The notes under the pieces are model-generated. The model was given only the letters and a program-made list of their open reading frames with translations. It had not been told where the DNA came from and ran no database searches. The position numbers were made by a program, and so were the translations under genes. From Dehalococcoidia bacterium (GTDB lineage: Bacteria > Chloroflexota > Dehalococcoidia > SZUA-161 > SpSt-899), in contig JALPXQ010000008.1 of assembly GCA_023271515.1 (NCBI GenBank), positions 1 to 26,772 of the forward strand: 26,772 nucleotides of DNA, in the 5' to 3' direction. Numbering within the stretch: the stretch's first letter is position 1; each line of letters opens with the position of its first letter. Shown one piece after another: positions 2,690 through 24,871 of this stretch.

Positions 2690-3806
2690 TGGCAAGTATA
2701 ATAGACGAACTGGAGCCCATCATTAATCCCCGAAGCATCGCCGTGATAGGAGCCTCAGATAATCCCGCTAAGCTGGGCTATCACTGCATGAAGAGCCTGA
2801 AAGAGAGCGGGCTTCAGTCCATATATCCCATAAATCCGCGCTCTTCGGAGATTTGGGGATTTCCGGCCTATTCCTCGCTGAGAGAGATAGATCAGGAAAT
2901 CGACCTGGCTATCGTGATTGTGCCGGCCTCTGCGGTTCCTTCAGCAATAGAGGATTGTGCCCGGAAGGGGATAAAAGGCATTGTCCTTATGACTGGTGGA
3001 TTCAGGGAAGCGGAAGATCTGGCGGGCTCCAGGATGAAATAGGTTTGCTGGCAAACAAGAGTAGAATCAGGGTGATCGGTTCCAACGCATTCGGTCCATC
3101 TAAATGCCTCCTTACCCCGGAATTCCTTGCTACTTGAGGGTAAGCCTTATAAGTCAAAGTGGCGAGATATGCCACCCTCCTTGCTGATGGAATCGGAGAA
3201 AGTAATCGGCTTTTCCAAGATCGTGGACCTAGGCAACCGATGCAAATTTTCCCAACATGCTGGAGTACCTGGCGGTGGACCTGGAGACCAGGGTGATCCT
3301 GATGTATCTCGAGGGGATAGATGATGCCCGCAGGCTTATCGAGATTGCTCGGTGAGTGGCGCCCCAAAAGCCCATAGTAGCCTTCAAGTCAGGAAAGATG
3401 ACCACTGCGGACAGAGCGGCTTATTCTCATACCGGTTCCCTGGCGGGAAAGCATAAGGTCTATCTCGCCGCTTTCAGGCAGGCCGGGATCCTGTTGGCAA
3501 GCGATTTCGAGGAATTGCTGGATATCTGACCCGAACGTTGATGCCCTCTTGTTTCTCTCTGCCTATGCCTCAGCCAACGAGCCCGTAATTAGAGCGCTCG
3601 CTGCAGTGCTGAGGGAGGAGATCGAGGCTCGCCGGAAGCCGATCCTCACCTGCTTCCCGACACCACTGCGAATCTGGGAGGAAAGGGTCGAGCTGGAGAA
3701 GAGCGGCATTCCGGTTTATGCTACGCCGGAGAGGGCGGCTAGATCTCTGGCAGGTTTGGTCTGCTACGGAGATATCCCGGCTTTGGCGCTATTCACGAAA
3801 ACTTGA
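2686..3806 (+). pseudogene. ADP-forming acetyl-CoA synthetase (acetate--CoA ligase) alpha subunit, heavily degraded. It has at least 4 to 5 frameshifts, an in-frame TGA at 3353-3355 and an apparent internal deletion of about 250 nt.
   Basis: An N-terminal CoA-binding domain is intact in ORF 2686-3042 (SIAVIGASDNPAKLGY...IVPASAVPSAIEDCARKGIKGIVLMTGGF). Homology then continues across three frames: LQDEIGLLANKSRIRVIGSN, HLNASLP, ISQSGEIC, GIGFSKIVDLGN, LEYLAVDLETRVILMYLEGIDDARRLIEIAR-TGA-VAPQKPIVAFKSGKMTTADRAAYSHTGSLAG. The C-terminal tail is in ORF 3549-3806. Total length is about 1.1 kb against about 1.4 kb expected. Confidence 0.7.
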
Positions 3807-4872
3807 ACCTCCCATATTTTTCCACCATTTTTTGGTCAATGGAAGGTCCCGTCTTGTGGATCACCTCCACTAAGTCTCTCATTTCCACATCCCTTGCAAT
3901 GCCGGTCTGGATATTCTCTCTAAAGGGGATCAGCGAGGCTTTAAGGCAGATCTGCCTTATGTCCGCGCCGCTATGACCCTCGGTCATCTGTGCCAGGTTG
4001 TCGAAATCAATATCCTCTGCCAGCGGCTTTCCCTGGAGATTCAATTCAAAAATCTTTTTCCTCGCCTGAGAATCAGGGAGAGGAACATAGATAGTCTCGT
4101 CAAATCTTCCCGGTCTAAGGGCAGCATGGTCAATGCTCCATGGCTCGTTGGTTGCCCCGATGAAGAGGAGGTTCTCATTTTTCGACTCCATCCCCTCCAT
4201 CTCCGCCAAAATCTGAGGAACAACCCGTTGCATCACCGTAGACCCGGAATCCTTCCTCTTTGGAATCAGTGCTTCAACCTCGTCAATAAAAATCACCGCT
4301 CTCTTCTGATTCCTCGCCGAAGAAAACAGCTTCGCTATATTCTGCTCACTCTCCCCGACCCACTTGCTCATAATTTCGCTCGGCTTTATGCTGAAGAATA
4401 CCGCATCCACTTCATTGGCAACCGCCTTTGCGATGTAAGTCTTGCCTGTGCCAGGGGGACCGTAGAGCAAGATTCCTCCCCCGGATCTGATCCCAAACCT
4501 CTTCGCCTCTTCAGGATATAGAAAAGGATAGATTATCTTGTTCTTGATCTCCTCTTTGATATTCTCCAGTCCTGCCACGTCGTCGAAGGTTACGGCAGGT
4601 CGTTCCTGCAAGATGAATTCTGCACCTTTTCCCCTTCCCGCAGCAGCCTCCTTTTCCTTAAGAGTGATAGACTTTGCCTTCTCCAGGAGTTTCTGGGCGT
4701 TTTCAACCCTTATCAGCTTCACCCTCCCCTGCGATTCGGAAGACGCATTAAAGAGTTGTCTGCTCGCCTGCAGGTAATAGTCTCTGGCTTTTCGCAACTC
4801 GCTTTGCGCTTCCGCCTTCATTGCCTCGGCGATATATTCTTCGGCTTTTTGAAGAAATACGTCAATGCTCAT
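3793..4872 (-). CDS. vps4: MIT-domain AAA+ ATPase, Vps4/CdvC-like (copy 1).
   Basis: It has an N-terminal three-helix MIT-like region. It has Walker A GPPGTGKT, Walker B IFIDEVE, arginine finger RPGRFDE and a Vps4-type C-terminal helix. Its start overlaps the stop of the upstream ESCRT-III-like gene. Confidence 0.85.
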   Translation of the reverse strand: MSIDVFLQKAEEYIAEAMKAEAQSELRKARDYYLQASRQLFNASSESQGRVKLIRVENAQKLLEKAKSITLKEKEAAAGRGKGAEFILQERPAVTFDDVAGLENIKEEIKNKIIYPFLYPEEAKRFGIRSGGGILLYGPPGTGKTYIAKAVANEVDAVFFSIKPSEIMSKWVGESEQNIAKLFSSARNQKRAVIFIDEVEALIPKRKDSGSTVMQRVVPQILAEMEGMESKNENLLFIGATNEPWSIDHAALRPGRFDETIYVPLPDSQARKKIFELNLQGKPLAEDIDFDNLAQMTEGHSGADIRQICLKASLIPFRENIQTGIARDVEMRDLVEVIHKTGPSIDQKMVEKYGRFKFS

Positions 4873-4875
4873 CGC

Positions 4876-5475
4876 CTACCCCTTCCGCATCATGTCCTCG
4901 ACTTCCTTGATGCCCCTGGAAATCCTCTCATCCAGGCCCTTTTCCTCAGTCTCTGCCTCCCCTTCCATTGTTTTTACAATTTCGTTGATGTCTCTATCAG
5001 AGAAACCTTCGGCACTCAAGATACCCTCGCTGGCCATGTCTAAAGTAGTGGACAACGCCTCGTCGATGCCCTCTGCCTGTGCCATCGCCTTCTCAAATTC
5101 CACCTGCATGCCGGCGATCTTTTCTACATCTGGGCCTTCGGTAATGGACTCGCTTATGTCCTTAGCAAAGGTTACAAAATCCCCGGAGATCTTGACCATC
5201 TCCCGTTGAAGTCTGGCCTCGTCCATCAGCAGGAGCATCCGCTGTCCCTTTCTTATCCGTTCCTGCAAGACCAGATATTTGGCAGCCTGCCTCTTCAAAA
5301 ACTTCTCTTCATTTAGTCTAGCCGCCTGCCTTCCCTGATCGTATATCGTCTTTTGCAGGTCCATCAGCTTCGAGATGTAGCCTTTAACCCTTGCTTTCGC
5401 CTTCCTGTACCTTATCTCCCTCTCGATCTCCTTCTCTTCCCTTGATTTTCCCTTCAACTTTTTCAATATGCCCAT
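4876..5475 (-). CDS. ESCRT-III/Snf7-like protein (copy 1). It is an all-helical protein of about 200 aa with a basic N-terminus and an acidic C-terminal tail.
   Basis: The N-terminus is MGILKKLKGKSREEK..., the sequence is predicted coiled coil, and the C-terminus is acidic (EGEAETEEKGLDERISRGIKEVEDMM, MIM-like). It is translationally coupled to the Vps4-like gene. There is a GGAG Shine-Dalgarno site 7 nt upstream of ATG 5475. Confidence 0.6.
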   Translation of the reverse strand: MGILKKLKGKSREEKEIEREIRYRKAKARVKGYISKLMDLQKTIYDQGRQAARLNEEKFLKRQAAKYLVLQERIRKGQRMLLLMDEARLQREMVKISGDFVTFAKDISESITEGPDVEKIAGMQVEFEKAMAQAEGIDEALSTTLDMASEGILSAEGFSDRDINEIVKTMEGEAETEEKGLDERISRGIKEVEDMMRKG

Positions 5476-8548: not shown

Positions 8549-8553
8549 CAATT

Positions 8554-12595: not shown

Positions 12596-15500
12596 TCAGG
12601 CAGCTCGTCTTTTTATGAGTAAGACGATCAGTCCTAGCGCTGCAATTCCGGCTGCGATCCACGGGTTCGCCTGAACAAGCTGAATAAGCTGAGCAAGTAG
12701 TCTTTCACCAATGCGAAGTAGTCTTTCGCCAATATCAAGTAGTCTTTCACCAATGTCTGGTGCCTGGGGCAAGACCACCTCGACTATTGTTGAGAAACTA
12801 TTTATCACCCCATCGTTATCTGCTATCGTCAGTGTTACCATATAGTCTCCAGCAACTGAAAAGCTATGCTCGATTACCCTACCAGTTCCAGTGGTTCCAT
12901 CCCCAAAGTCCCATTCATAGGATATTATCTCGCCATCAGGGTCAGACGAACCAGACGCATCGAAGGTGATGGGCTGATCTACAATCATCTCCTCCGGGGA
13001 GTATGCAAAAGATGCGATTGGTTGTTGAAGCATTCTCTGTTCCTCAAATACCCCGTCGCCATCAGCATCCGTCTTCATGGTAACCCCTGCCTGGACGGGA
13101 ACTTCTGTATCAATAACAAATCGGTGTGTTGTAGTCTCTGTCGTGGGGACATCAGTAATAGCAAAACTCTCAATTTGTCCTTCCACGCTAGAAATCGTTG
13201 TTAATCGATATGTTGCCTCCTCTATACCTGCAACCTCTAAGTAATAGATGCCAGTTGGAGCAAATATAGTAACAATCTTATTTTCCGTATCATACATTGA
13301 ATATGGAATTTCTTCTTTTACTACTCCATCTACTAAACCAGTAACTCGTCCCTGAGAATCGTAAACCCGTAACTCTCCAGGACTGGCAAATGCTACAACT
13401 CTGAGGTCAGCAGGCAATATATTCAGAAATTCTCTTCTGATAAAATGTGCTGCGATATTCTTGTGAGAATCCATCCTGATAGTGGTAACGGGTGCATGTA
13501 CATCTGCAATAGTCCCAACATCTCCTTTCCAACCAACAAACTTCCAACCTGGAGCAGGATATGCCCTAATTTCTACTTGTTTTAGTTCTCCTCTAGGAAA
13601 AATAGTATCTCCAGGTTTATTAACTGTCCCCTCGCCAATAATATCCATTGAAAGTGTTACATCTTCGGAAATGAAGGTAACCAATGCAAACCCTATTATT
13701 GGATTCCCCCTCCAAAAATCTTGATATACACCTATTCCAAGACTTACAAGAGTATTTCCTGCAGCTCTAATAAGATTAATAGGAGCAAGGAGACGGTCTA
13801 TAACCCACCCTTTACCATACTCCCTAACTGTATCAGATTTTGCAATATCAAGTAAAAGTGGTGGTAAAGAATTAAGTACGACTTCACGCCCTTCAGGACA
13901 GAATACAATAGTTCTAGGAGTTAACACAAGCTGCCCCATCTGTAATAATGTTCTAGATTGAATATATTCTACAACTTCTTTTAAATGCTCATGATCCTCA
14001 AATTCTATATAAAGTTGTAATGCAAACTTAGGTTCAGCCGGAACTCCAAATACTCCTAATGCTGCTGATAATAATTCCATTGCTATTGCAACGTGCACTA
14101 TCGCCATTTCAACTTCCAATATATCTCCAGGTAGAAGAGTATTAAGCTTCACCGTGTATGTTACGCTTCCCTTAGGAGGGACTAGTCTAAAATAATTACC
14201 AAAACTTTCTTTCTGAAGATGTTCCATAAAGCCATCTATACTTTCTAAAGTTACATCTTCCCTAATAAACCGAGGTTTAAATTCAACCCACATATCTAAA
14301 GAGTTGTGTACAGTTAGCTCAACAATGCGCTTCTCCTCATCGACATATATAGGAGCAGATCCCCTTATACGCCAATCATCACCGCTAATTTTAAAAAACG
14401 CTGTTTTATATGGTAGTGCCGGCGGGGTGACTTCTAGTGCCTCGGTGAAGGTCCTTGAAGCCAGGTGCCGATCCCCAGCATCTATCCTGCCGTTGTTGTT
14501 GACATCCTCCACCAGAGAGACGAGCAGGTTATACCTGCCTGGGGGTGCATCTGTCGGCATTACAAACGAACGCTGGACGGTGCTGGAACCTGAAACGATG
14601 GCGACCTGGCGATCATTGGCCGGATCGCTCAGAGGCGATCTCCCGGGCAACTGGATGCTGGCCCCCAACAGAACCGTCCTTGTGGGCCCTGGATTTGCCA
14701 CGTTGTATGTAATGGTGATCGTCTCTCCGGCCGCAGCGGTGCTGGGTGACGGGTGAGCAGATGTGATTGTTGGGTCTGGTGGTGGCGCCGGCGGGGTGAC
14801 TTGTAGTGCCCCGGTGAAGGTCCTTGAAGCCAGGTGCCGATCCCCGGCATCTATCCTGCCGTTGTTGTTGACATCCTCCACCAGAGAGACGAGCAGGTTA
14901 TACCTGCCTGGGGGTGCATCTGTCGGCATTACAAACGAACGCTGGACGGTGCTGGAACCTGAAACGATGGCGACCTGGCGATCATTGGCCGGATCGCTCA
15001 GAGGCGATCTCCCGGGCAACTGGATGCTGGCCCCCAACAGAACCGTCCTTGTGGGCCCTGGATTTGCCACGTTGTATGCAATGGTGATCGTCTCTCCGGC
15101 CGTAGCCGTGCTGGGTGACGGGTGAGCAGATGTGATTGTTGGGGCTGGTGGTGGTGCCGCCAGTAGACGAAGCCTGCTGGGCGTGGAGCTGCCAATGTTG
15201 TTATTCTCATTCGATTCGGTGACTTGTTTAAAGCCATCAACAAAGACTGTCACATAGTAATCCCCCGGGGCAGGAACTGCTGATGGGATGGCGTTAGTGG
15301 TGATAGTGAGCGTTCTAGAGGCACCAGGACCGAGCGAGGCTACAGGGAAATTGCCCAAACCGTGGCGAGTTCCCCATCGACGGGTGGATAGAGAAACACG
15401 GAGGTGGAATGAGCCCGAGGCGGCATCACCCCGGTTTTTCACTGTAAAAGCAACCGAAATTTCATCGCCGTGAGCTACCTCAGCAGGGTCGAAGGTGACG

Positions 15501-15631
15501 CGGGTCGTCACAGTAAGATCAGGGAGTCCAGCGCTGGCTATCGCGGTGGGTACTGTCAAAGCGCTCGCGCTGAACAGCAGCAGGGTGGTCATAAGGATGG
15601 CGAAAATGCTGAGAGTAGTTCTCTTTTGCAT
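12596..15631 (-). CDS. Large surface adhesin-like protein of 1011 aa. It has a signal peptide, a CARDB-like domain, 2 identical Ig-like repeats of 123 aa, a central domain of unknown function, a PKD domain and a C-terminal TM anchor preceded by 3x IGERLL.
   Basis: The N-terminal signal is followed by a CARDB-like segment (PDLTVTTRVTFDPAEVAHGDEISVAFTVKNRGDAASG). The PKD motif is ITFDASGSSDPDGEIISYEWDFGDGTTGTG...GDYMVTLTIADNDG. The C-terminus is PWIAAGIAALGLIVLLIKRRAA. There is an AGGAGG Shine-Dalgarno site upstream of ATG 15631. Confidence 0.8.
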   Translation of the reverse strand: MQKRTTLSIFAILMTTLLLFSASALTVPTAIASAGLPDLTVTTRVTFDPAEVAHGDEISVAFTVKNRGDAASGSFHLRVSLSTRRWGTRHGLGNFPVASLGPGASRTLTITTNAIPSAVPAPGDYYVTVFVDGFKQVTESNENNNIGSSTPSRLRLLAAPPPAPTITSAHPSPSTATAGETITIAYNVANPGPTRTVLLGASIQLPGRSPLSDPANDRQVAIVSGSSTVQRSFVMPTDAPPGRYNLLVSLVEDVNNNGRIDAGDRHLASRTFTGALQVTPPAPPPDPTITSAHPSPSTAAAGETITITYNVANPGPTRTVLLGASIQLPGRSPLSDPANDRQVAIVSGSSTVQRSFVMPTDAPPGRYNLLVSLVEDVNNNGRIDAGDRHLASRTFTEALEVTPPALPYKTAFFKISGDDWRIRGSAPIYVDEEKRIVELTVHNSLDMWVEFKPRFIREDVTLESIDGFMEHLQKESFGNYFRLVPPKGSVTYTVKLNTLLPGDILEVEMAIVHVAIAMELLSAALGVFGVPAEPKFALQLYIEFEDHEHLKEVVEYIQSRTLLQMGQLVLTPRTIVFCPEGREVVLNSLPPLLLDIAKSDTVREYGKGWVIDRLLAPINLIRAAGNTLVSLGIGVYQDFWRGNPIIGFALVTFISEDVTLSMDIIGEGTVNKPGDTIFPRGELKQVEIRAYPAPGWKFVGWKGDVGTIADVHAPVTTIRMDSHKNIAAHFIRREFLNILPADLRVVAFASPGELRVYDSQGRVTGLVDGVVKEEIPYSMYDTENKIVTIFAPTGIYYLEVAGIEEATYRLTTISSVEGQIESFAITDVPTTETTTHRFVIDTEVPVQAGVTMKTDADGDGVFEEQRMLQQPIASFAYSPEEMIVDQPITFDASGSSDPDGEIISYEWDFGDGTTGTGRVIEHSFSVAGDYMVTLTIADNDGVINSFSTIVEVVLPQAPDIGERLLDIGERLLRIGERLLAQLIQLVQANPWIAAGIAALGLIVLLIKRRAA
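14400..15137. repeat. Perfect tandem duplication, 2 copies of 369 bp differing by a few SNPs, inside adhesin gene 12596-15631.
   Basis: The block starting near 14421 (ggcggggtgacttctagtgcc...) recurs at 14790. The two ORF-track antisense ORFs 14304-14756 and 14763-15125 are near-identical. The duplication encodes a duplicated Ig-like module of 123 aa. Confidence 0.9.
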
Positions 15632-15752: not shown

Positions 15753-17009
15753 TCAGCCTACCTTATATTCCCTGGCAGCCTCTATCAACTCCCTGAACAT
15801 CTCACCCTCTCCCGTTCCGCTTAATTCTTTGACTGCTTTTGGATACCAAGAAGCAAGCACAGTCTTCTTCCCTTTCAACACCTGGTCGAAGTCTTCCATC
15901 GTTATCTCTCTCCTGGGGGTCATCTCTTTGATCCTCTCCCCCAGGGGAATCATTGCCGCCTTCTCACAGATATCTGCGATCTCAGCGCTGGCATATCCCT
16001 CGGTGATCTCTGCCAGTCTCTGCAGACTGACTGATCTGGAGACAGGCTTATTCTTCAGATTTATCTCCAGGATTTTTTTGCGAGCCTCAATATCGGGATG
16101 GGGGAGGAAAACCGTTGTATCGAACCTCCCTGACCTTCTCAAAGCAACATCAACAGCCCAGGGGCGATTGGTAGCTGCAAGAACAAGATAGCGTTTAGTT
16201 GTGCCTTTCGCTTCCAGACCATCCATCTGTGATAACAGCTCGCTTACCAGGCTTCTCTCGTGCCCCTCCATTGACCCGGAGCGCTCCCCTGCCAGGGAGT
16301 CGAACTCATCGAAGAATAACATTGCCTTTTCATAGCTTCTGGCAACGTTGAAGATTTCCTTGATGTTTTTCTCGCTTTCTCCTACGTATTTGTCCTTGAT
16401 ATCGCTGCCTTTTAGACTGACGAAGGCTGCATCGGATTCGGCCGCCGCCGCCGCCGCGAGCATCGTTTTTCCGCATCCCGGAGGACCGTATAAGAGAATC
16501 CCCCCACCCGGTTTAACCCCAAAGTACTCGTACTCCTCCGGGTACTTGAAGGGATAAACAATTGCCTCCTTGATGTTCTCCTTTACTCTGGCTAAACCGG
16601 CGATATCGCTGAATCTTATCTTCGGTTTTTCCGCCAGGATCAGACCTTTAACCCTCTCCCCTGTCTTTTCTTTCTCTATCCTCCCCCCGGGTGTCTTTTT
16701 AACCCCTTCCTCCGGTGGTATCATGCCATCCGTATATACTTTAACAGTCCCTTCTTTGAGCCCCTCGGCGATCTCCCTGAATTTCTTGGATCTGTCCAGC
16801 AGCTCTTTTCGCTTATCCCTCGGTGACATATCTGCAAGATGCTCCAGGAATTTAGCGCACTTTAAGTACTCCACACTGGCTTTCGCCATGCTGCCTTCAT
16901 CATAGTGCCTCCTGGCCAGATTAAGGGATTTCTTATACTCGGCTTGGACCGCATCTCTCAGCTCCATACTTATTCCCTCCATAGTCGGGTTATCGGGTTC
17001 AGGGTTCAC
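15753..17009 (-). CDS. vps4: MIT-domain AAA+ ATPase, Vps4/CdvC-like (copy 2). The likely true start is ATG 16967 (MELRD...).
   Basis: It has an MIT-like N-terminus. It has Walker A GPPGCGKT, Walker B LFFDEFD, RSGRFDT and a Vps4-like C-terminus. The ORF-track start 17009 is GTG. An internal ATG at 16967 is preceded by GGAGGGA with a 6 nt spacer. Confidence 0.85.
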   Translation of the reverse strand: MNPEPDNPTMEGISMELRDAVQAEYKKSLNLARRHYDEGSMAKASVEYLKCAKFLEHLADMSPRDKRKELLDRSKKFREIAEGLKEGTVKVYTDGMIPPEEGVKKTPGGRIEKEKTGERVKGLILAEKPKIRFSDIAGLARVKENIKEAIVYPFKYPEEYEYFGVKPGGGILLYGPPGCGKTMLAAAAAAESDAAFVSLKGSDIKDKYVGESEKNIKEIFNVARSYEKAMLFFDEFDSLAGERSGSMEGHERSLVSELLSQMDGLEAKGTTKRYLVLAATNRPWAVDVALRRSGRFDTTVFLPHPDIEARKKILEINLKNKPVSRSVSLQRLAEITEGYASAEIADICEKAAMIPLGERIKEMTPRREITMEDFDQVLKGKKTVLASWYPKAVKELSGTGEGEMFRELIEAAREYKVG

Positions 17010-17106
17010 GGGTCACGGTTGATGGTTCACGGTTCATGGTTATTTGTCTAACCGTTCAATCTTGATCGCTCTAACCTTGAACCGTGAACCCCGGCAACTT
17101 TGAATC
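16987..17106. repeat. GGTTCA-rich inverted-repeat intergenic element (copy B), in the 5' region of the Vps4-like copy 2 gene.
   Basis: The sequence is gggttatcgggttcagggttcacgggtcacggttgatggttcacggttcatgg...taaccgttcaatcttgatcg...cttgaaccgtgaacc. The arms GGTTCACGGTTCA and TGAACCGTGAACC form a dyad. Confidence 0.7.
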
Positions 17107-17113
17107 TAAGCAG

Positions 17114-17743
17114 CTACAGCGTCTCTAACTCTTCTTCCTCCCTCTCTCTGGCAACTCTCTCTTTTAGCAGCCTCTCAGCTATCTGCTCAGCTTCGGCTTC
17201 ATTTGCCGTTTCCAAGACGTCCATGTATCTCTTTATCTCTTCGTCCTCCTTGGGTTTGGCAAGTAAGCCCAATTCTCCATCTAACATCTCAAGTAAGTTG
17301 TCCACATTCCCTTTCGCTATCTCATTCTGCAGGTTCACTTGTGCCAGAAACTTTTCCAGCTTACTCGCCGGTAGTTTGGTCAGCTTGGTCATTATGCCCT
17401 TATGTGCCAGCAACTCTTGGCTCTCCTGGGTGAAAACCAGATTGTCCACTACTCGAAGTTGGTCGTTGATGTTCTTCAGATACTTGTCGTCGAGTGCCAT
17501 CTCGCGCTCCAAACGCAGCATCTGCCTTGCAGTGCTCCTTTTCTTCGCCTCGCTGCTTTCTCCCGAGCCTTGTTTTATTAGCGCCCTGAACTGCTGAGAC
17601 GCCTTGTCAACCTTTGCTATCCTCAGCTTCTCTTCCCTTTCCAGCCTGATCCTTTCGGCTATCAGGTCATCCTTCTTCAGCTTCTCGAAGGGGTTTCCCT
17701 TTATTTTGTCCAGAATTCCCATTGTGTTTGCCTCCTTTTTCAT
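17114..17743 (-). CDS. ESCRT-III/Snf7-like protein (copy 2). The likely true start is ATG 17722 (MGILDKIKG...).
   Basis: An internal start MGILDKIKG mirrors MGILKKLKG of copy 1 and has an AAGGAGG Shine-Dalgarno site 8 nt upstream. It is all helical with an acidic C-terminus (AREREEEELETL). It lies directly upstream of Vps4-like copy 2. Confidence 0.6.
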   Translation of the reverse strand: MKKEANTMGILDKIKGNPFEKLKKDDLIAERIRLEREEKLRIAKVDKASQQFRALIKQGSGESSEAKKRSTARQMLRLEREMALDDKYLKNINDQLRVVDNLVFTQESQELLAHKGIMTKLTKLPASKLEKFLAQVNLQNEIAKGNVDNLLEMLDGELGLLAKPKEDEEIKRYMDVLETANEAEAEQIAERLLKERVAREREEEELETL

Positions 17744-18002: not shown

Positions 18003-18295
18003 TTAGCATTGACTTAGCATATTCTCGATGGCAATGCGCTCTTTCTCAAGGAGACCCAATGCTTCATACTCCCCAGCCCATATCATTGCCTCCTGATCGT
18101 CTCCATCAAGACCCTTCTCGAATTTCTTGAGAAATTCTTTGCTGCTCATTCCTGTACTCTGCTCAAAATCTCTCAGCTTCTTCCTTGTGGTAGAGATGCT
18201 CCTATCCAGCAAGAGCTTTTCTCTTTTAAGCGATGCTTCCAACACGCCAACCGCTGTCACAACATCTGGAACCTCAAGCTTTATCACACCCATAT
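18003..18295 (-). CDS. Small hypothetical protein of about 96 aa, the last gene of the six-gene operon.
   Basis: There is a GGAGGT Shine-Dalgarno site 6 nt upstream of ATG 18295 (MGVIKLEVPD...). It lies downstream of 18356-19978. The longer ORF-track start at 18359 is unlikely because it overlaps the upstream gene. Confidence 0.45.
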
Positions 18296-18355
18296 AATTA
18301 CCTCCTACTACCCTCATTTCATCTCCACCTGGTATGTAAGGATTCCCCAAAATTC

Positions 18356-19978
18356 TCACCTCAAATAGCCCCGCTCGAGTCTAACCGTATCTCCAACATC
18401 CACCCCCAGTATATCTCTCACCATCCTGTTGACCTTGATCACATCTCGATCACCGTCATCCAGCGGGCGAACGGTTACAAGATGTTCCCTGCCGGAAAAG
18501 ACAATTCTTGCCCGATCAATCCCTTGCAGACCCAGCCGTTCCATTATCTCTGGGTGAACCCGCACGACATTGCCGTATCTATCCTTCGGATGTGGATGGG
18601 TTACCCGCAGCAGTATCTCAACTGACTGGCTGCAAATTGTCTCCACCATATTGATTGGAATGCCGGTTTCAATTGATAATGCAAAGATCTCTTTTCTCAG
18701 TTGATCTCCCTTCACACCAGCCAACCGCTCCTGCATTTTCCTCAATTCTTCCGGTGCTATGTCAAATCTCTCCGATAGGCTCTTGCTATCTTTCCCTGTA
18801 ATCTTTTCAACGCCATCAGAGGTTTGGGATATGGTTTCAAGATCAGACAGGCTGTCCAGTAATTGTTGCATATGATTTCTCAACCCGGGAAGCTCTGTTT
18901 TCGCCATCGCCACATTCAAGATATCCCTTGCTCTTGCATAATGACGCAAGGACGCATCATCATCCCCGGTATGCCGCAGAAGGTCTGCAAGCAGCATCTC
19001 CTCATAGCCACCAAGTATCGTGCTGAGTGCATCTATCCCCGTTGCGATTTCGGTCTTACCTATCTTCTCAAAGTACAACCTGCTCGCCTCAAATGATGAT
19101 CTTGCCTGGCTGATCTCTGATTGTAGTAGAGATAGGTGATCATCATTGTGGCTTAACATCAGATGCATCAGTTGTGTCAGGTGGGCCCAGCCATTACAGA
19201 ACCTGCTGCTTGTAAATAACCCCTCCCTTGTCTCTTCCGAATCTGCATGGAGAGCTGCTTCATAATACATCTTTGCTGCCGCAAGGAAACGGTGCTTGGC
19301 AGCACGGTAATCCCCTTCTCTGTATGATGCTGCCCCCTCCTGCTCGTTATGGATTGCCATCTCGAGCGGCCTCTTTGTCTCAACGATCTCCTTTGCAGGT
19401 GTAACTATTATGTGGCGACCGATAGGTACTCGGAGGTAATCTTCAAAAGCCAGTCCGTACCTCTCCTCCAGGTAATCTCTCATTCCCTTTGGCAACTGAC
19501 CGAATACCGCATTCTTAGCGATCGGATCCATTGGGACCTGTTCACCAGTTGACTGCTGCAGCTCGATATACACGTGCTCTGGAAGGATCACAAAGATGGG
19601 TTCAAATCCGATGGAGCCGAGCATCGCGGCAAGCAGGATCGCCTGGTCATCACAATCCCCGGCGCTGACCTCCAGTGTCGCCACCGCCGGCTGGAAGTGA
19701 TCACCGGGCGGATCATTGATATACTCAATGTTGTCTCGCACCCAGAGAAAGATCGCCTCAGCCACCTTATTGCGATCCGCATCACTCATCCTCTTGACAT
19801 CAAGCGGCGCATCATAAATCTTCTTCACCACCTCGTATGCCGTCTTCCTTACAACAGGTTCTCGTGAGCCCCTTTTTGCCTGCTCAATCATCTCGGCTAC
19901 CTTCAGTATTTTCCTTGACGGCATAAAATTGAGGGAGCCGCAAGAGGTATCACCCGGGGATACTTTCCCATCTCTCAT
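18356..19978 (-). CDS. Transglutaminase-like cysteine protease domain protein. It has a central TPR-like helical region and a C-terminal Cdc48/VAT-N-like double-psi barrel segment.
   Basis: The transglutaminase-like core motif is SAGDCDDQAILLAAMLGSIGFEPIFV, with downstream His and Asp. The C-terminus NVVRVHPEIMERLGLQGIDRARIVFSGREHLVTVRPLDDGDRDVIKVNRMVRDILGVDVGDTVRLE resembles the Cdc48 N-domain. Confidence 0.6.
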   Translation of the reverse strand: MRDGKVSPGDTSCGSLNFMPSRKILKVAEMIEQAKRGSREPVVRKTAYEVVKKIYDAPLDVKRMSDADRNKVAEAIFLWVRDNIEYINDPPGDHFQPAVATLEVSAGDCDDQAILLAAMLGSIGFEPIFVILPEHVYIELQQSTGEQVPMDPIAKNAVFGQLPKGMRDYLEERYGLAFEDYLRVPIGRHIIVTPAKEIVETKRPLEMAIHNEQEGAASYREGDYRAAKHRFLAAAKMYYEAALHADSEETREGLFTSSRFCNGWAHLTQLMHLMLSHNDDHLSLLQSEISQARSSFEASRLYFEKIGKTEIATGIDALSTILGGYEEMLLADLLRHTGDDDASLRHYARARDILNVAMAKTELPGLRNHMQQLLDSLSDLETISQTSDGVEKITGKDSKSLSERFDIAPEELRKMQERLAGVKGDQLRKEIFALSIETGIPINMVETICSQSVEILLRVTHPHPKDRYGNVVRVHPEIMERLGLQGIDRARIVFSGREHLVTVRPLDDGDRDVIKVNRMVRDILGVDVGDTVRLERGYLR

Positions 19979-19990: not shown

Positions 19991-20227
19991 CTATTTCTTG
20001 TCCACCCTCGAGCCTATTTTGTATAAGATTGCGGCGAGAACGCCGCTGGCTAAGGCGCCGCCCACGGGGCCGCCTATGGCACTACCCAACGTCAAGCCGA
20101 GAGCGGTTCCAGTGGTCATACCAGCAACCTCAAAAAAGCCGTCAAACTCCTCTGGCTCGCCTTCAACATACCTATACTCAACAGCCTTAACCCATTCTAA
20201 ATGCTGATATATTATCTCGCTGTCCAT
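19991..20227 (-). CDS. Small membrane protein of 78 aa with a glycine-zipper TM segment.
   Basis: The C-terminal half is GTALGLTLGSAIGGPVGGALASGVLAAIL, made of GxxxG repeats. It is wedged between the SPFH gene and the transglutaminase-like gene, with a 6 nt gap to the SPFH gene and 12 nt to the transglutaminase-like gene. Confidence 0.5.
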   Translation of the reverse strand: MDSEIIYQHLEWVKAVEYRYVEGEPEEFDGFFEVAGMTTGTALGLTLGSAIGGPVGGALASGVLAAILYKIGSRVDKK

Positions 20228-20233: not shown

Positions 20234-22048
20234 TCACCCCCTATGCGCGATCGTAGCGCCACAATTCGTGCAGAACTTCGTGCCGACAGGCAACTCCACA
20301 TTACATCCGGTGCAGATAACGACCCTCTTTGTTTCCTGAGCCGGCGGTGAGGGTGTTCCACCTATTATTACCGGTTGCCCCTGTTGTCCGCCCGTTACTA
20401 CGGTTGTCCCTCCTGTCTGTGCTCGCGTAGAAGCTGTGGTCCCCATCTGTTCCAGTGCCTTTGCCGCCAGGCGCTCGATTCTATCTCCGCCTTTATCTGC
20501 CATCTCCTGTATTGTCTTAAGCATCTTATCCCTATCGCCAAGGCGATCCTCGTAAATGCTCATAATCTCCTCGGCACTCTTCGACTTATATCTCTCCTTG
20601 AATGCTTCAGCTATGGCAGCGCTGTCCCTCGCTCCAAGGGCAAGTATCTGCTCGTCTGTAAGGCCGGTGGCTAACTTCATTCTTGCCAGTTCGGTGAGGT
20701 GCTCTGCCTGTTTGCTCTCCACCATAGAAATGAGAGCCTCATCCGAAGCCGCAGAACGCACCTTAAGCCGCTGTTCCTCAAGCTCGGCTTCTTTCTGCAT
20801 CCGCTCAATCTCAAGTTTCTGATAGCCGGCCACATCCTCTCTTTTTGCTGCTTTCAAATCTCTCAGAGCTTTCAATCCCATATCCAGTTCTTCTCGATCT
20901 TGCTCCATCTCTAGCTCATGCGACTTTCGCCCCATCTCCAGTTCATGCAAACGCCGTTCAGCATCCATATCCAGCGCGTGTCTCTGTTCAACTCGTTTCA
21001 GCATCAAATCCCGTGCAAAGGCTCGATCCTGGCGATTCTCCTCAAATATTTGTTTGAGTTCAACCATCTCGTTCTCTTGAATGACCTTGCTCCTGTCGAG
21101 CTCGTGCAAGAACTTTTCAAGGTCTTCTGCATTCTGGAGTTCATTGATCTTATCAGCAGTGAGCCTTGCACGCATCCTCCTTGTGAGATCAAGCCGCCTA
21201 TCCGCAAGAGTTTCTCGCTCTTCATCCCTGGCGTATTCACCTCGCTCTCTGCGTATGGCTTCCCAGTAGCTTTCATCATAGTCGAAATATGAAAGATACA
21301 CCAGGTTAAGCCCGTTTCGACTGAGCGTTGTATCCAGGTGATGCCTGAAATCCTGCTCGATCTCCTTTTTCAATTCGAGATTGCCATACAACTCCTCGAA
21401 CGAATACTGCTTGATCTTTGATTGCAGTATATTCAGCAGCTCACTCCTCAACATCGCTTCAATATCTGTTATCAGTATCTCCTCTTTGGTTTTCATGAGG
21501 TTCTGGAAGAACAGTATCGGCTCCTCGATGTTCAGAACGACTTTCCCTCTCACCCCGGCATCGAAGTTCTCTCTTGTTCTCAGACCACCGATATTGAAAT
21601 TGAGTCCAACATCGGCGTCATCCACTAATATTATAGTTGCCCTCTCTGCCAGATTGAGATTCTTTATCATCGAGATAAGCCCCCCTACATTGTATCTCCC
21701 GGGCGGCAATTCCCCAAAGAACCTTCCTTCCTGCAAGACTATCGCCTTCGTTCCTGAGGTGATAGTTATGTTCTTGCTGAAGATCCCTTTGATGTCGCTG
21801 ACCTCCAATCTGCGCGCAAAGTCATTGGGACCTCTTTGCCAGGTGCTTATTTTGCCGGGGTCTTCCCTCTTTTCTACGAACTGGCTGCTCGCACCACAAC
21901 CGGGGCAGAACTTATATTCCGGCTCTATTGACCTGCCGCAGTTGCTGCAAACCGATTCAGAGAAGAGAGGGCTTCCACATTGCGAGCAGAATCTGCTCTT
22001 GGGATCACTCCTTACTCCACACTTGCTGCACGTTATTTTTTCAAACAT
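20234..22048 (-). CDS. Zinc-ribbon / SPFH (band-7/flotillin-like) / long coiled-coil / zinc-ribbon protein of 604 aa.
   Basis: The N-terminus has four CxxCG pairs (CSKCG, CSQCG, CSNCG, CPGCG). There is an SPFH-like segment (AIVLQEGRFFGELPPGRYNV...ILITDIEAMLRSELLNILQSKIKQYSFEELYGN). A coiled coil of about 250 aa is rich in E, R and A. The C-terminus is CTGCNVELPVGTKFCTNCG. There is a GGAGGA Shine-Dalgarno site 6 nt upstream of the ATG. Confidence 0.65.
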   Translation of the reverse strand: MFEKITCSKCGVRSDPKSRFCSQCGSPLFSESVCSNCGRSIEPEYKFCPGCGASSQFVEKREDPGKISTWQRGPNDFARRLEVSDIKGIFSKNITITSGTKAIVLQEGRFFGELPPGRYNVGGLISMIKNLNLAERATIILVDDADVGLNFNIGGLRTRENFDAGVRGKVVLNIEEPILFFQNLMKTKEEILITDIEAMLRSELLNILQSKIKQYSFEELYGNLELKKEIEQDFRHHLDTTLSRNGLNLVYLSYFDYDESYWEAIRRERGEYARDEERETLADRRLDLTRRMRARLTADKINELQNAEDLEKFLHELDRSKVIQENEMVELKQIFEENRQDRAFARDLMLKRVEQRHALDMDAERRLHELEMGRKSHELEMEQDREELDMGLKALRDLKAAKREDVAGYQKLEIERMQKEAELEEQRLKVRSAASDEALISMVESKQAEHLTELARMKLATGLTDEQILALGARDSAAIAEAFKERYKSKSAEEIMSIYEDRLGDRDKMLKTIQEMADKGGDRIERLAAKALEQMGTTASTRAQTGGTTVVTGGQQGQPVIIGGTPSPPAQETKRVVICTGCNVELPVGTKFCTNCGATIAHRG

Positions 22049-22136: not shown

Positions 22137-23297
22137 TTACTTTAGTTTTCCCCCACAAAAGGGGCAGGCGATCCACTCCGCTTCTACCTTCTGACCGCAT
22201 TGGGAGCACTTCAATTCAAGTTCGGTCCCGCAGAACGGACACATGCGCCACCCTTCTTGTAGTTTATTGTTGCATTTTGCACACCTCCTTTCAACATCAC
22301 TAGCATCTGCCCCACCACCTATCTCACTGCGCTGAACTATACTATCGCTCACCTCAATGCTTCTACCCTTCGTTGATGAGTCACCTGTCTTGCCAGTTTC
22401 CGCTGCGCCAACTGTGCTTCTTTGAATTACGCTATCTTTGATCTGCGTTGCTCCAGAAGATACAACTTCGCCGATTGACCCTATATCAACCTTTGTTACC
22501 GTTTTATCGGCCTCCATTACCTGAACTAAAAAATCCTTTTCGGCATGGTATTTTACTCCATTTACATCAATGCAGACCACATCCAAATTCAGGCTTACAA
22601 AACCACTTTCTCGTGTTCTTAGAACCGGCTGGATAACCACACTCTGGTTCGGCCTCAGGAACTCGGTGCAGACCAGTGTCTTATCCAGTTCAAACTTTGA
22701 ATTCTCTTTCAATGAGACGGTTATGCTTGCGATGTTTTCTTTGCTTATATTTTTGAAAATACAATCCAACGGCTTCCACTGCTCCTGTATCATTTCTTGT
22801 GCCTTCAGCTGGATACTCAGCGGACTGACATACACCTCCATCTCGTTCGAAAGCAGATCATCGAGTGAAAACTTGTTCTCGATCTCGCAGACTGCTCGTG
22901 TTGAAAAATGGCCGCCGGTATTGGCCCGGATTCGGTATTGATATTCTTTCTCTTCGCCCGGAGCTAGTTGGCATACCATATCAGGCATGTCCCCAATCAA
23001 CTCGAATTGTGGAGGGATTTCATCTGTGACAATGCAGTCTAACAGACCTGCTCGGCGCCGGCTTTGAAGTTTTATCGTTATAGTTATTGCCTCTCCGATT
23101 TCAATATATTTGTTTGAGCACACCTTGGAAAATGAAAGAATAGAGTCATCTCCCGATATCTTTGCGATCCCCTTTTGAATACCACTCACAACTGCGTCAA
23201 CTTTTGCTTTTTGGGTTGCGTCCTGAATCTTCTCTTTTATTCCGCTTGCATCTATTCTATCCTTCACTATCCTGGAGAAGTCTTTAATGTCCTTCAT
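22137..23297 (-). CDS. Protein with an N-terminal helical segment, beta-rich Ig-like middle domains and a C-terminal double zinc ribbon.
   Basis: The C-terminus is CAKCNNK...CPFCGTEL...CSQCGQK...CPFCGGKL. There is a GGAGGTGGAG Shine-Dalgarno site upstream of ATG 23297. The start overlaps the stop of the upstream gene (ATAATG). Confidence 0.55.
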   Translation of the reverse strand: MKDIKDFSRIVKDRIDASGIKEKIQDATQKAKVDAVVSGIQKGIAKISGDDSILSFSKVCSNKYIEIGEAITITIKLQSRRRAGLLDCIVTDEIPPQFELIGDMPDMVCQLAPGEEKEYQYRIRANTGGHFSTRAVCEIENKFSLDDLLSNEMEVYVSPLSIQLKAQEMIQEQWKPLDCIFKNISKENIASITVSLKENSKFELDKTLVCTEFLRPNQSVVIQPVLRTRESGFVSLNLDVVCIDVNGVKYHAEKDFLVQVMEADKTVTKVDIGSIGEVVSSGATQIKDSVIQRSTVGAAETGKTGDSSTKGRSIEVSDSIVQRSEIGGGADASDVERRCAKCNNKLQEGWRMCPFCGTELELKCSQCGQKVEAEWIACPFCGGKLK

Positions 23298-24871
23298 TAT
23301 CTCTCCACCTCCATCATACCTTTAATGATTGCGAATTCCTTCTCCGAGATCCTTTCTCTAATTCTCAGTGTGTCGGCCCCATTGGCGATAACAGAACGCT
23401 TGCGCGAAGAAGAACCAAGAATAGAATTACTGGATATGTGTCCCAGAAGCGCTAATTCAAGTTCCCGATCACTCATCAACCTGTTTGTCAGATTCTCCGT
23501 GAATAGAGCATCAAGCCCTTCCCGATGATCCCCCCCGCTGAATTTTGCAAGCAAGGATGAAGCAAGTGATTTCGACTCCTCTGTGACAGAGTTTGGTGGA
23601 AATATCATGAATCTCTGCGTTCCTGCTTTTTCATCCTTGAAAAGAGCAACGAAAGCTGGAATATATACCAAAAAGGAGCCCTGAGCATCTTCGGCCACGC
23701 CGGGTAAGGGCAGGCTGATACTTAATTCATTTATCCTGTCAGTCAGTGCGTTCTTTGCATTTATGATGTATGCCTCTTTAGCAGCCATGAATCTCTCGAG
23801 CAGACGCTCGACACTTTGCATCTTCTCCTTGAATTCATACCTGATGCTCTCTGTCTCATTGTCGAAATTCTCCACTTGCTCATCCAGAGCCAGCAGTTGA
23901 TTATGTAGTTCTGTTCTACGGTTTGCGGCTCTCTCTTTGATTTCTCTGATAGCCTTGTCTATATCCACCAACTGATTCTTACATTCGGTGATAGAGTCTT
24001 TAAGCCGTTCCACTTCACCGGAAGTGCTGGAGAGTTGTTTATTTAGCTGCTGAATCTTGTGTTCTACGGTCTTCCGGCGACCCATACGATCAGAGAGCAA
24101 ATTCTCCTCATCTTCGTCGTTATCCCTTTTCAATTGCTTTATCTCGGCCGCCTTTATCTTAAACGCATCTATCATCTCTCTCCGTTTCTTGTTCCTCATC
24201 ACCATCGTCTTTTCACATTCTTCGGAGAGATTTGCTATCAATAACTGGCTTCTTTGTGTTATTAGTTCCTGAATATCATCCAGGTGAGATGGCAAACTGG
24301 ACAATTTGTCCTCCTCGCACTCCAGCATCTGATGAATCTCTTCAACCTCCTTATTTTGCTCGAAGCTATCGGTGTCGAATAAGAAAACATCTGTGCTTTC
24401 CGTTTCAAAGACGGAGCCCAAAAGCTCCCTTAAATCGTCCAGAGCTTGTTTGCCAGGCAGCGACTCGAATGCTCGTGTATGCTCTTTAACCTCTGCAATC
24501 GATGCGACCAGTGTGGAAAGTCCCCTTATGAACTCATCATAGTCGGTCTCTGCTCGAGCGAATGTTTTCTCCAGAGATTCTAGATCGTGCACCACAATCT
24601 CCGGGAAGGATAAGATCTTCTTTTGTGCCAAAGCCTCATGCAAGATCACTATACCCCGTCCCCGGCGAGCATAAAAAGATATAAGAACGGGGATAGCCAA
24701 CTCTGCTATCCCCCTCACAATCTCCGCCGACTTCTTAAAGAGCCCACCACCCTTTTTGCTCCGGTGCACATTCAGCACCAACCTGGGCAGATATTCCGCT
24801 TCCGGCATCCTGCTTCCACTTGATATTGCAAAGTGAACTGACTTCATGTTTCCCCCTCTTATCAGGTTCAA
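23297..24871 (-). CDS. Coiled-coil protein of unknown function, the first gene of the six-gene operon. The likely true start is ATG 24847 (MKSVHF...).
   Basis: It is a 524 aa ORF with a long central coiled coil (residues about 200-380) and a C-terminal globular part. The ORF-track start 24871 is TTG. An internal ATG at 24847 has a G-rich Shine-Dalgarno site. Confidence 0.5.
   Translation of the reverse strand: MNLIRGGNMKSVHFAISSGSRMPEAEYLPRLVLNVHRSKKGGGLFKKSAEIVRGIAELAIPVLISFYARRGRGIVILHEALAQKKILSFPEIVVHDLESLEKTFARAETDYDEFIRGLSTLVASIAEVKEHTRAFESLPGKQALDDLRELLGSVFETESTDVFLFDTDSFEQNKEVEEIHQMLECEEDKLSSLPSHLDDIQELITQRSQLLIANLSEECEKTMVMRNKKRREMIDAFKIKAAEIKQLKRDNDEDEENLLSDRMGRRKTVEHKIQQLNKQLSSTSGEVERLKDSITECKNQLVDIDKAIREIKERAANRRTELHNQLLALDEQVENFDNETESIRYEFKEKMQSVERLLERFMAAKEAYIINAKNALTDRINELSISLPLPGVAEDAQGSFLVYIPAFVALFKDEKAGTQRFMIFPPNSVTEESKSLASSLLAKFSGGDHREGLDALFTENLTNRLMSDRELELALLGHISSNSILGSSSRKRSVIANGADTLRIRERISEKEFAIIKGMMEVER

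Follow-up and report, generated by a model that had tools for sequence, protein, structure and literature searches.

The 26,772-nucleotide stretch of Dehalococcoidia-assigned DNA analysed here (the window) carries a gene for a 540-amino-acid protein in which a transglutaminase (TGase)-like cysteine protease core is followed by a helical domain of Bro1/MIT-like fold and by a Cdc48-type double-psi β-barrel. The protein is probably a previously undescribed protease, and with somewhat less than even confidence we propose that it would act as a cytoplasmic, membrane-proximal cysteine (iso)peptidase docked on a prokaryotic ESCRT-III/Vps4 and SPFH membrane-remodelling assembly. It is placed on such a machine because its gene always follows that of a small membrane protein and usually lies near ESCRT-III-like and Vps4-like genes. 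Look-up of the exact protein sequence returned no matching record, our literature search found no paper on a TGase plus helical plus barrel protein, and transglutaminase is unmentioned in the main text and supplements of Makarova et al. 2024. HMMER, run exhaustively over 1.84 billion representatives, finds the TGase-plus-barrel architecture solely in one small family, which agrees with the suggestion in the initial annotation that the domain combination is new.

The open reading frame is genuine: a GGGGGA ribosome-binding site lies 9 nt ahead of its ATG, the start codon is 12 nt past the stop of the gene upstream, and full-length homologues exist at 50–99% identity. The product has no signal peptide and is cytoplasmic. 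An AF2 model of the full-length protein, built from 29 sequences, has low confidence over amino acids 1–60. Features of the gene and its neighbours are collected in the table.

Table. Features of the TGase-like protein gene and of neighbouring genes in the window
Feature	Position	Strand	Basis or remark
Whole gene, TGase-like/Bro1-MIT-like/double-psi-barrel protein, 540 aa	18356..19978	(-)	ORF and translation; stop codon TGA at 18356-18358
N-terminal region, aa 1-60	19799..19978	(-)	Alignment; invariant S38, R39, R44, K45
TGase-like cysteine protease core (predicted), aa ~61-200	19379..19798	(-)	Pfam Transglut_core and conserved triad
Cys109 codon	19652-19654	(-)	
His135 codon	19574-19576	(-)	
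Asp151 codon	19526-19528	(-)	
Seven-helix α-solenoid, aa 204-383	18830..19369	(-)	Fold like Bro1 core
Disordered variable linker, aa 384-~399, and four-helix small unit, aa ~400-454	18617..18829	(-)	
Double-psi β-barrel, Cdc48/VAT Nn type, aa 455-540	18359..18616	(-)	Pfam and sequence/fold similarity
78-aa partner gene	19991..20227	(-)	Directly upstream of TGase gene
604-aa SPFH scaffold	20234..22048	(-)	Pfam and hydropathy scan
386-aa zinc-ribbon protein	22137-23297	(-)	
524-aa coiled-coil protein	23297-24871	(-)	
Probable ESCRT-III-like subunit, 209-aa ORF	17114..17743	(-)	Adjoins Vps4-like gene on its upstream side
Vps4-like AAA+ ATPase, 418 aa	15753..17009	(-)	MIT-like N-terminus, one AAA cassette
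Second module	3793..5475	(-)	
Snf7-like 199-aa protein (second module)	4876-5475	(-)	
Vps4-like 359-aa protein (second module)	3793-4872	(-)	

Over amino acids 68–126 the core matches Transglut_core (PF01841) at 30.7 bits, above the gathering score of 23 (E 4.1e-7), as had been proposed from the sequence, and the motif GDCDDQAILLAAMLGSIGF begins at amino acid 107. Cys109, His135 and Asp151 are invariant among 29 family members, as is the flanking AGDCDD motif, so that the expected Cys-His-Asp triad is complete. In a 12-sequence alignment that includes distant TGase-like proteins, Cys109, His135 and AGDCDD are still invariant and Asp151 is at least 90% conserved, and in P0060, a relative at 30% identity, the triad is likewise retained, within AGDCDC. 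A single-sequence PDB search with this region gave only a spurious match, to FabH, so a profile was needed. The TGase-domain profile finds LapG (4u65_E, E 2.4e-4) and 3isr (E 6.9e-4), with a weak match to PNGase 1x3w (E 0.42); all three triad residues line up with their counterparts in 3isr, and the Cys motif aligns with LapG 4u65. LapG itself is a protease of TGase fold whose triad is C-H-D (PMC4359373). The AF2 model of the core has low pLDDT (<50 over amino acids 83–109 and 149–161) and places a helix (109–121) that begins at Cys109, strands at 136–139 and 147–149, and His135 beside a strand, an order of secondary structure that fits a papain-like fold within this low-confidence region. What is conserved so strictly is a predicted TGase/papain-type Cys109-His135-Asp151 centre.

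Sequence does not distinguish protease from transamidase chemistry, and the same Cys-His-Asp centre would support transamidation. The protein might then be a true transglutaminase that cross-links Gln and Lys residues of an SPFH or ESCRT-III-like lattice, or of cargo, and so locks the scaffold, with the helical domain and barrel as substrate docks; TgpA is reportedly a bacterial TGase-domain protein, and a linker rich in Gln and Gly (TGGQQGQP) precedes the last zinc ribbon of the SPFH partner. We consider this unlikely, since the closest solved sequence relative, LapG, is a protease, and the motif following the nucleophile is CDDQA, whereas animal cross-linking TGases have CWVFA there and need the Trp for transamidation. 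Most prokaryotic TGase-like proteins are, moreover, considered hydrolases (Makarova et al. 1999, as cited in PMC2989375).

The region between core and barrel, described at first as a TPR-like linker, is really a sizeable conserved domain; in structure it comes closest to Bro1 and MIT domains. In a structure comparison against 48,164 chains all five Bro1-domain chains occupy ranks 1–5, with about 185–190 of their 358–377 residues matched by this domain of ~180 residues, and MIT domains, including that of Sulfolobus Vps4, are matched over their whole length. The first three helices of the solenoid resemble an MIT domain, and its most conserved patch, FxxAAKMY...SSxFCxGWxHL, lies in helices 2–3. 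The domain therefore has the fold of the Bro1 helical core and lacks the full ~360-residue Bro1 boomerang with its N-terminal part. Pfam gives no BRO1 (PF03097) or MIT (PF04212) match in the protein at E <= 10, and in their place only TPR matches below threshold, and a PDB profile search with the helical domain returned nothing significant and no Bro1 chain. Bro1/Alix orthologues have been reported not to be identifiable even in Asgard archaea (PMC10936438).

The C-terminal barrel matches CDC48_N (PF02359) over amino acids 457–535 with 40.3 bits against a cut-off of 35.1 (E 3.6e-10) and is 33% identical to an Aeropyrum barrel (E 6.6e-10). Both motifs that had been quoted for it are present, MERLGLQGIDRARIV and VRDILGVDVGDTVRLE lying at equivalent positions of its two pseudo-symmetric halves, so that the region combines an above-threshold profile match with a double-psi fold and its pseudo-twofold repeat. 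The chain ends 5 residues past the barrel and so has the Nn half of the Cdc48 N-domain alone; it gives no match to the Nc β-clam (CDC48_2). In p97 structures the Nc β-clam and Nn together form the adaptor-binding cleft. The barrel similarity in the initial annotation stands, but with this part of the cleft missing the substrate-recognition role attached to it is an assumption. Pfam detects no AAA+ cassette in the chain, the AAA+ proteins being encoded by genes of their own. The barrel is an accessory module: it is missing from sister subfamilies (P0033-39, P0060) in which TGase core, helical domain and small partner gene are all retained. In the barrel-less subfamily the four-helix unit is swapped along with it.

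Directly upstream, the 78-aa partner combines an acidic/aromatic N-terminal helix that is conserved (HLEWxK motif) with a hydrophobic segment rich in Gly and Ala and with a basic tail; it is 61–67% conserved, gives a weak Gly-zipper match and one hydrophobic window, and is probably a membrane anchor or adaptor. The 604-aa protein consists, in order, of a double zinc ribbon, an SPFH/Band-7 domain, a long middle region and another zinc ribbon, and the hydropathy scan finds no transmembrane segment in it. Neither the 78-aa partner nor the 540-aa protein matches NfeD or ClpP models, and the cluster is thus outside the SPFH-NfeD/STOPP class. The 386-aa zinc-ribbon and 524-aa coiled-coil genes have orthologues in the most syntenic loci (L005 and L010/L037). 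Archaeal ESCRT loci with SPFH, coiled-coil and zinc-ribbon proteins have already been described (PMC10936438).

On the other side, the nearest AAA+ gene, 1.35 kb downstream, is Vps4-like with a single AAA cassette, which bears out the AAA+ proximity claimed earlier. The N-terminal region of this 418-aa ATPase aligns with the MIT regions of other Vps4-like proteins, and the Pfam MIT match among the Vps4-like neighbours is weak (E 0.007). The Vps4-like proteins of the window have AAA and AAA_lid_3 Pfam matches, and the CdvC model spans the full 359-aa ATPase with 258 bits, under the equivalog cut-off of 650; membership in the Vps4/CdvC type thus appears to hold at the level of architecture only. 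The 209-aa ORF, whose likely true start is M8 (MGILDKIKG), has no direct Pfam or PDB match; by hhalign it matches the 199-aa group (P 2.4e-5, 183 columns), in which the L005 member has a Pfam Snf7 match and the 199-aa neighbour itself has no PDB match and reaches Snf7 only at E 0.14. Weak profile evidence of this kind makes its ESCRT-III identity probable. A CHMP4-like 'LxxW' Bro1-binding motif was considered; it occurs in the ESCRT-III-like proteins of L004, L036 and L037 (QALEMWDEL) and is not conserved in the 209-aa protein. Genes of the PP2C and Ser/Thr kinase types are found upstream of the second module.

The family comprises 44 clusters and is found in ANME-2/GoM-Arc1 archaea and on contigs of Dehalococcoidia-labelled genomes; a further database search, made with nothing but the TGase region, brought in just 12 more proteins. 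In all 18 loci a gene for a small glycine-zipper membrane protein (75–80 residues) lies directly upstream of the TGase gene, and one is also found beside the 30%-identical P0060. This is the most frequent neighbour, and the ESCRT-III-like/Vps4-like pair ranks next. A Vps4-like gene is present on 10 of the 18 loci, and most of the loci without one are short contigs. L046 and L048 are compact, with the small, TGase, ESCRT-III-like and Vps4-like genes directly one after another in that order. A zinc-ribbon SPFH orthologue precedes the small gene and TGase pair in a third of the loci (6/18: L001, L003, L004, L005, L006 and L010). The barrel-less subfamily keeps the pairing with the small gene, and its locus L038 also has ESCRT-III-like and Vps4-like genes. 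An ESCRT/SPFH membrane system consequently fits the context better than the Cdc48-type segregase frame first given to it: the invariant partner is a small membrane protein, not an AAA+ ATPase.

In L001-L003 the orthologue is directly followed by genes for JAB, E1 (ThiF), an 87-aa β-grasp protein whose internal GG is followed by 8 extra residues, and E2. This arrangement would suit an enzyme that is mainly a ubiquitin-like (Ubl) protease or isopeptidase, a DUB analogue that strips or matures Ubl on cargo like Doa4/AMSH while its barrel binds the β-grasp fold; Cdc48/Ufd1-type N-domains do bind ubiquitin-like folds, and TGase-fold enzymes include the isopeptidases PeiW/PeiP (PMC2989375). We regard it as quite unlikely, however, as the genes for Ubl, E1, E2 and JAB are confined to a single lineage and absent from the window and the other 16 loci, and the L001-L003 cluster has a JAB peptidase of its own. 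The barrel, in addition, is without the Nc half, which in p97 contributes to the UBX/Ubl-binding cleft.

The island has a lower GC content than its flanks, and it seems to have passed between archaea and Dehalococcoidia; the occurrence in Dehalococcoidia probably stems from horizontal transfer. Chimeric assembly at the junction of bacterial genes and island was considered and rejected, because the junction recurs, at ~96% nucleotide identity, on an independent contig. Toxin-antitoxin modules are inserted throughout the orthologous loci. Since these loci are rich in toxin-antitoxin genes and kinases, a stress or defence role unconnected with ESCRT is conceivable; the protein would then serve a mobile island as its effector protease and would be linked to Vps4-like genes through co-transfer only. 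The low GC, the apparent inter-domain transfer, the toxin-antitoxin insertions, the kinase and phosphatase genes and the moderate matches of the window AAA+ proteins to IetA/TRIP13 defence models all point that way. For the same AAA+ proteins, however, the scores with CdvC/PAN/Cdc48 models are about double, and PADLOC defence models match none of the TGase protein, the small partner, the SPFH and the ESCRT-III-like proteins; gene order is kept across 50–93% identity, and no family member was found on a viral contig, which together make this role very unlikely. Finally, three of the four regions of the protein are interaction-type modules, and Rad4/XPC are inactive TGase-fold proteins, but a catalytically inert scaffold or adaptor that links the small membrane protein with SPFH and ESCRT-III is scarcely credible given the invariance of the triad and AGDCDD in the family, their near-complete retention in distant relatives and the intact triad of P0060.

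For the (iso)peptidase docked on an ESCRT-III/Vps4 and SPFH assembly, the parts of the protein suggest a possible mechanism. The small protein would tether the enzyme to the membrane via its conserved N-terminal helix. ESCRT-III tails are docking sites for MIT and Bro1 domains, and the helical domain may likewise bind the C-terminal tail of an ESCRT-III-like subunit within the polymer, or else the SPFH protein, while the barrel, where present, could hold an extended or β-grasp segment of the client. The active site would then cleave a scaffold subunit or cargo protein at a peptide or isopeptide bond; the cut would make one step of the assembly cycle irreversible, and the Vps4-like ATPases would recycle the polymer.

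Vps4-like ATPases appear to be absent from bacteria (PMC7619361), and the setting here is an ESCRT-III/Vps4/SPFH cluster of alkane-/methane-oxidising archaea and, it appears, of a Dehalococcoidia bacterium as well. The family offers a compact, testable protease built from the recognition modules of Vps4- and Cdc48-type ATPases. If its helical domain binds ESCRT-III tails, regulated proteolysis would be a new step in prokaryotic ESCRT cycles, the fold would be a structural precedent for, or a convergence with, eukaryotic Bro1/MIT-protease modules, and the link between SPFH and ESCRT would gain a handle in a catalytic Cys mutant and the 78-aa partner; inter-domain transfer of an ESCRT system would be documented too, if true. 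A wider reading, which we hold to be doubtful, is that a prokaryotic Bro1-like ESCRT-III-binding domain has been fused to a cysteine (iso)peptidase, that the eukaryotic practice of placing a protease or deubiquitinase on ESCRT-III by way of a Bro1/MIT adaptor (Bro1-Doa4, PalA-PalB, calpain-7) pre-existed or arose independently in non-Asgard archaea and was wired to E1-E2-Ubl-JAB in one lineage, and that a Vps4/ESCRT-III island moved into Dehalococcoidia.

In eukaryotes PalA/Rim20, a Bro1-domain protein, is found with the calpain-like protease PalB/Rim13 on ESCRT-III. Bro1-Doa4 (PMC2172414), Bro1-Snf7 (PMC3172170) and calpain-7/IST1 (PMC10586806) are further eukaryotic precedents for proteases recruited to ESCRT-III. 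As in Bro1-Doa4 and PalA-PalB, a papain-superfamily cysteine protease is here paired with a Bro1-shaped helical domain, and the likeness to Bro1-Doa4 extends to a genomic context of ESCRT-III-like and Vps4-like genes, with a Ubl system in one lineage. Those systems, however, use two chains and a USP or calpain catalytic domain, whereas both functions are in one chain here and the catalytic domain is TGase-like; the host of Bro1-Doa4 is a eukaryote (yeast) and the present host is prokaryotic; and with ~185 of ~360 Bro1 residues matched at 8–12% identity the likeness to Bro1 is one of fold. Calpain-7 also joins tandem MIT domains to a cysteine protease and binds the ESCRT-III protein IST1, but its domain order is opposite, its protease family is another one, and it has neither a barrel nor a small membrane partner.

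LapG, of the bacterial BTLCP group, is the best solved sequence relative of the core and shares with it the AGDC(D/E)D motif and the C-H-D triad; it is periplasmic, single-domain, calcium-dependent and controlled by LapD, whereas the 540-aa protein is multidomain and cytoplasmic. PNGase is a TGase-fold enzyme functionally tied to the Cdc48-type machine p97, which it binds through a PUB domain; it is an amidase acting on glycans and has no barrel of its own. SPFH proteins have operon partners in the stomatin-NfeD/STOPP and HflK/C-FtsH systems, where, as here, the gene for an SPFH scaffold accompanies those for a small membrane protein and a β-barrel-bearing protease. The proteins here have no homology to NfeD, ClpP-type or FtsH proteases, so that this is an analogy only, and the present SPFH protein has zinc ribbons where others have a membrane anchor. 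The barrel has the same Nn fold as the Cdc48/p97/VAT N-domain, with clear sequence similarity, and is of the type carried by the VAT-N-bearing Vps4-like ATPases of haloarchaeal ESCRT loci, some archaeal Vps4-like ATPases having a VAT-N domain in place of MIT (PMC10936438). Cdc48/VAT have the Nc β-clam and AAA+ in the chain, whereas this protein has neither and carries the barrel at the C-terminus of a protease. In effect, the MIT-like and VAT-N-like recognition modules of Vps4- and Cdc48-type ATPases appear here joined to a protease rather than to an unfoldase.

The target gene is preceded by a ribosome-binding site (GGGGGA) and starts 12 nt past the stop codon of the gene before it (see table). 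The ORF is real, and the two domains named in the initial annotation were correctly identified, both with Pfam matches above their gathering scores: Transglut_core at amino acids 68–126 (30.7 bits versus 23) and CDC48_N at amino acids 457–535 (40.3 bits versus 35.1). The likeness of the C-terminal barrel to the Cdc48 N-domain holds for the double-psi barrel (Nn) half alone; the chain stops 5 residues beyond it and Pfam finds no match to CDC48_2, the beta-clam half. A hydropathy scan found neither signal peptide nor transmembrane segment, the sole hydrophobic window being the helix after the nucleophile.

Coordinates of features in the window
Feature	Position	Strand	Size
Enoyl-CoA hydratase gene	1919-2689	+	
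In-frame TAG in the enoyl-CoA hydratase gene	2315-2317		
Vps4-like gene, first pair	3793-4872		359 aa
ESCRT-III-like gene, first pair	4876-5475		199 aa
Repeat protein gene	8554-9735		393 aa
Repeat region	9151-9778		~155-nt unit
CARDB/PKD surface-protein gene	12596-15631		1011 aa
Vps4-like gene, second pair	15753-17009		418 aa
ESCRT-III-like gene, second pair	17114-17743		209 aa
TumA-like ORF	18003-18359	-	118 aa
Target (TGase) gene	18356-19978	-	540 aa
Small partner gene	19991-20227	-	78 aa
SPFH gene	20234-22048	-	
Second kinase gene	25086-26732		

Throughout the family G107-D108-C109-D110-D111, H135 and D151 are invariant, and the Cys-His-Asp triad is complete. In an alignment extended to distant TGase-like proteins of 175–312 residues, neither AGDCDD nor H135 varies, and conservation at D151 is 90% or higher. 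As a profile, this extended alignment matches two solved structures. In 3isr, a TGase-like protein from Cytophaga (E 6.9e-4), Cys, His and Asp correspond column for column. The other, LapG (4u65_E, E 2.4e-4), is a protease of TGase fold that has a C-H-D triad, with calcium close to its active site (PMC4359373). In the full-length AF2 model, whose confidence in the core is below 50, Cys109 starts a helix and His135 lies beside a strand. The bacterial protein TgpA is said in the literature to carry a TGase domain.

The joining region, initially called TPR-like, is helical as proposed, amino acids 196–455 forming a seven-helix solenoid when modelled separately (AF2, pLDDT ~90); TPR matches between the two Pfam domains are all sub-threshold, and the predicted fold is Bro1/MIT-like. 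The best PDB profile match is a MIT domain (E 0.34) and comparison with the MIT regions of these loci's Vps4-like proteins gave P 1.7e-4 and 50% probability (hhalign), both sub-threshold; Pfam matches neither BRO1 nor MIT in the target. Because the sequence support is sub-threshold, our label Bro1/MIT-like for this region, by its model a proper domain, refers to fold and makes no claim of homology. Its most strongly conserved patch is FxxAAKMY...SSxFCxGWxHL in helices 2–3.

A word-indexed search gave 44 family clusters. Searching 1.84 billion representatives exhaustively with HMMER gave one representative of the full architecture, a 499-aa subfamily that lacks the barrel and has another C-terminus, one 671-aa, 30% identical relative with no barrel, and fragments; the remaining ~1,200 matches are, among the matches listed, mostly generic TGase domains. 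The sister subfamilies, P0033–P0039 (loci L038, L039) and P0060 (the 671-aa type; L042, L043), retain the small partner gene, TGase core and helical domain and differ at their C-termini: the former have an unrelated ~80-aa tail in place of a four-helix unit and the barrel, and P0060 has its helical domain duplicated. Genomes with a full-length gene belong to Ca. Ethanoperedens, Ca. Methanogaster (ANME-2c) and Ca. Argoarchaeum, and ~11 JGI metagenome contigs carry one too; the viral contigs searched contained no family member.

In 18/18 loci, and also beside P0060, the gene directly upstream of the TGase gene encodes a protein of 75–80 aa (conservation 61–67%). Its N-terminal helix is acidic/aromatic and bears the motif H-L-E-W-x-K; a hydrophobic, Gly/Ala-rich stretch weakly matches a glycine zipper, and the tail is basic. 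Upstream there is usually also a gene for a zinc-ribbon SPFH/Band-7 protein of 600–680 aa lacking a transmembrane segment, preceded in the most syntenic loci by zinc-ribbon and coiled-coil protein genes.

The expected neighbouring AAA+ ATPase genes are indeed there. A Vps4-like gene is present on 10/18 loci, those without one being mostly short contigs, and the compact loci L046 and L048 have the order TGase, ESCRT-III-like, Vps4-like. The window has two separate ESCRT-III-like/Vps4-like pairs (3793–8551 region and 15753–17743), the first adjoining PP2C phosphatase and 751-aa Ser/Thr kinase genes. The 209-aa protein, which probably starts at MGILDKIKG, matches the Snf7-annotated 199-aa group with P 2.4e-5 (hhalign). 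The Bro1-binding motif of CHMP4 is LxxW; TKQALEMWDEL, in the C-terminal region of the 202–204-aa ESCRT-III-like proteins of L004, L036, L037 and L048, resembles it and is not conserved in the 209-aa protein. A TumA-like antitoxin gene (33 bits) separates the TGase gene from the second pair in the window; it overlaps the target stop codon, also resembles PADLOC model PDC-M44A, and has no recognised toxin gene adjoining it. In other loci SWIM, HEAT or PQQ genes are interspersed, as are toxin-antitoxin modules (HEPN/MNT, ParE, PemK, PIN, UPF0175), whose insertion places vary.

The left end (1–3800; GC 0.55–0.60) has an HdrA-like gene, an enoyl-CoA hydratase gene and a CoA-binding gene, whose best named relatives are from Chloroflexi/Dehalococcoidia (78–88% identity). 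Directly adjoining it is the archaeal-type ESCRT-III-like/Vps4-like island (3800–26772; GC 0.46–0.50, versus 0.55–0.62 in the flanks). The junction is not an assembly chimera, since an independent contig of 38.5 kb from GCA_023271455.1 (L041) has it too, at ~96% nucleotide identity. This contig is 95.8% identical to window 1–1850 and 96.5% to 3526–8842, encodes an identical 359-aa Vps4-like protein and continues into HIT, DnaJ, MerR and ClpB genes; more than 15 Dehalococcoidia-labelled bins carry this ATPase, on two contigs together with that DnaJ. The island probably came from archaea of the ANME-2/GoM-Arc1 type, in which the orthologues are 50–69% identical; Vps4-like ATPases appear absent from bacteria according to a 2025 review (PMC7619361).

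Three local features may be recorded here. A single in-frame TAG (...FGQPEIK*GVNPPPA), at a position where crotonases have a hydrophobic residue, divides the enoyl-CoA hydratase gene into two ORFs of the same frame; the gene could be a pseudogene or be read through, or the stop could be a sequencing error. The ~155-nt repeat lies within the gene for an SBBP-like protein with DUF4398/DUF1771-like matches and has more copies in the L041 strain (4165–6018, protein of 691 aa), a case of copy-number variation between near-identical genomes. GC falls to 0.40 at 13001–14000, inside the surface-protein gene.

The data establish three features of the protein: conservation of its Cys-His-Asp centre, the presence of two domains of the interaction type, and an operon partner that is strictly kept. 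We propose that the small protein would anchor the enzyme at the membrane, that the helical domain would dock onto ESCRT-III-like tails or the SPFH protein, that the barrel, where present, would hold a client segment, and that the enzyme would cleave a scaffold subunit or cargo at a peptide or isopeptide bond. The TGase fold has precedents for both peptidase (LapG, PMC4359373) and isopeptidase (PeiW/PeiP, PMC2989375) activity. Less probably, it could be a cross-linking transglutaminase. It might also be a Ubl-specific peptidase: in the L001–L003 lineage JAB, E1 (ThiF), 87-aa beta-grasp and E2 genes lie directly downstream of the TGase gene (L001 11750–14039), the beta-grasp Ubl ending ...PTGG-VFNGKISK with an internal GG, and among the 18 loci compared these genes are absent from all others. 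A role as an effector in defence or stress is a further reading of low probability; PADLOC matches neither the target nor its conserved partners. The least probable of these readings is an inert scaffold. The earlier framing as a protease with a segregase domain needs replacing by that of a putative ESCRT/SPFH-associated protease with Bro1/MIT-like (by fold only) and Cdc48-Nn modules.

Archaeal ESCRT loci contain SPFH, coiled-coil and zinc-ribbon proteins, kinases and phosphatases, and one Vps4-like ATPase has a VAT-N domain instead of MIT; for Bro1/Alix, not even Asgard archaea have an identifiable orthologue, and a transglutaminase is unmentioned in the main text and supplements of that work (Makarova et al. 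2024, PMC10936438). Full-text literature searches found nothing with the target's domain combination, in keeping with its proposed novelty. Functional analogues include PalA-PalB and stomatin-STOPP. Others are Bro1-Doa4 (PMC2172414, PMC3172170) and calpain-7/IST1 (PMC10586806), and by analogy we would place the target with the ESCRT-III-tethered cysteine proteases.
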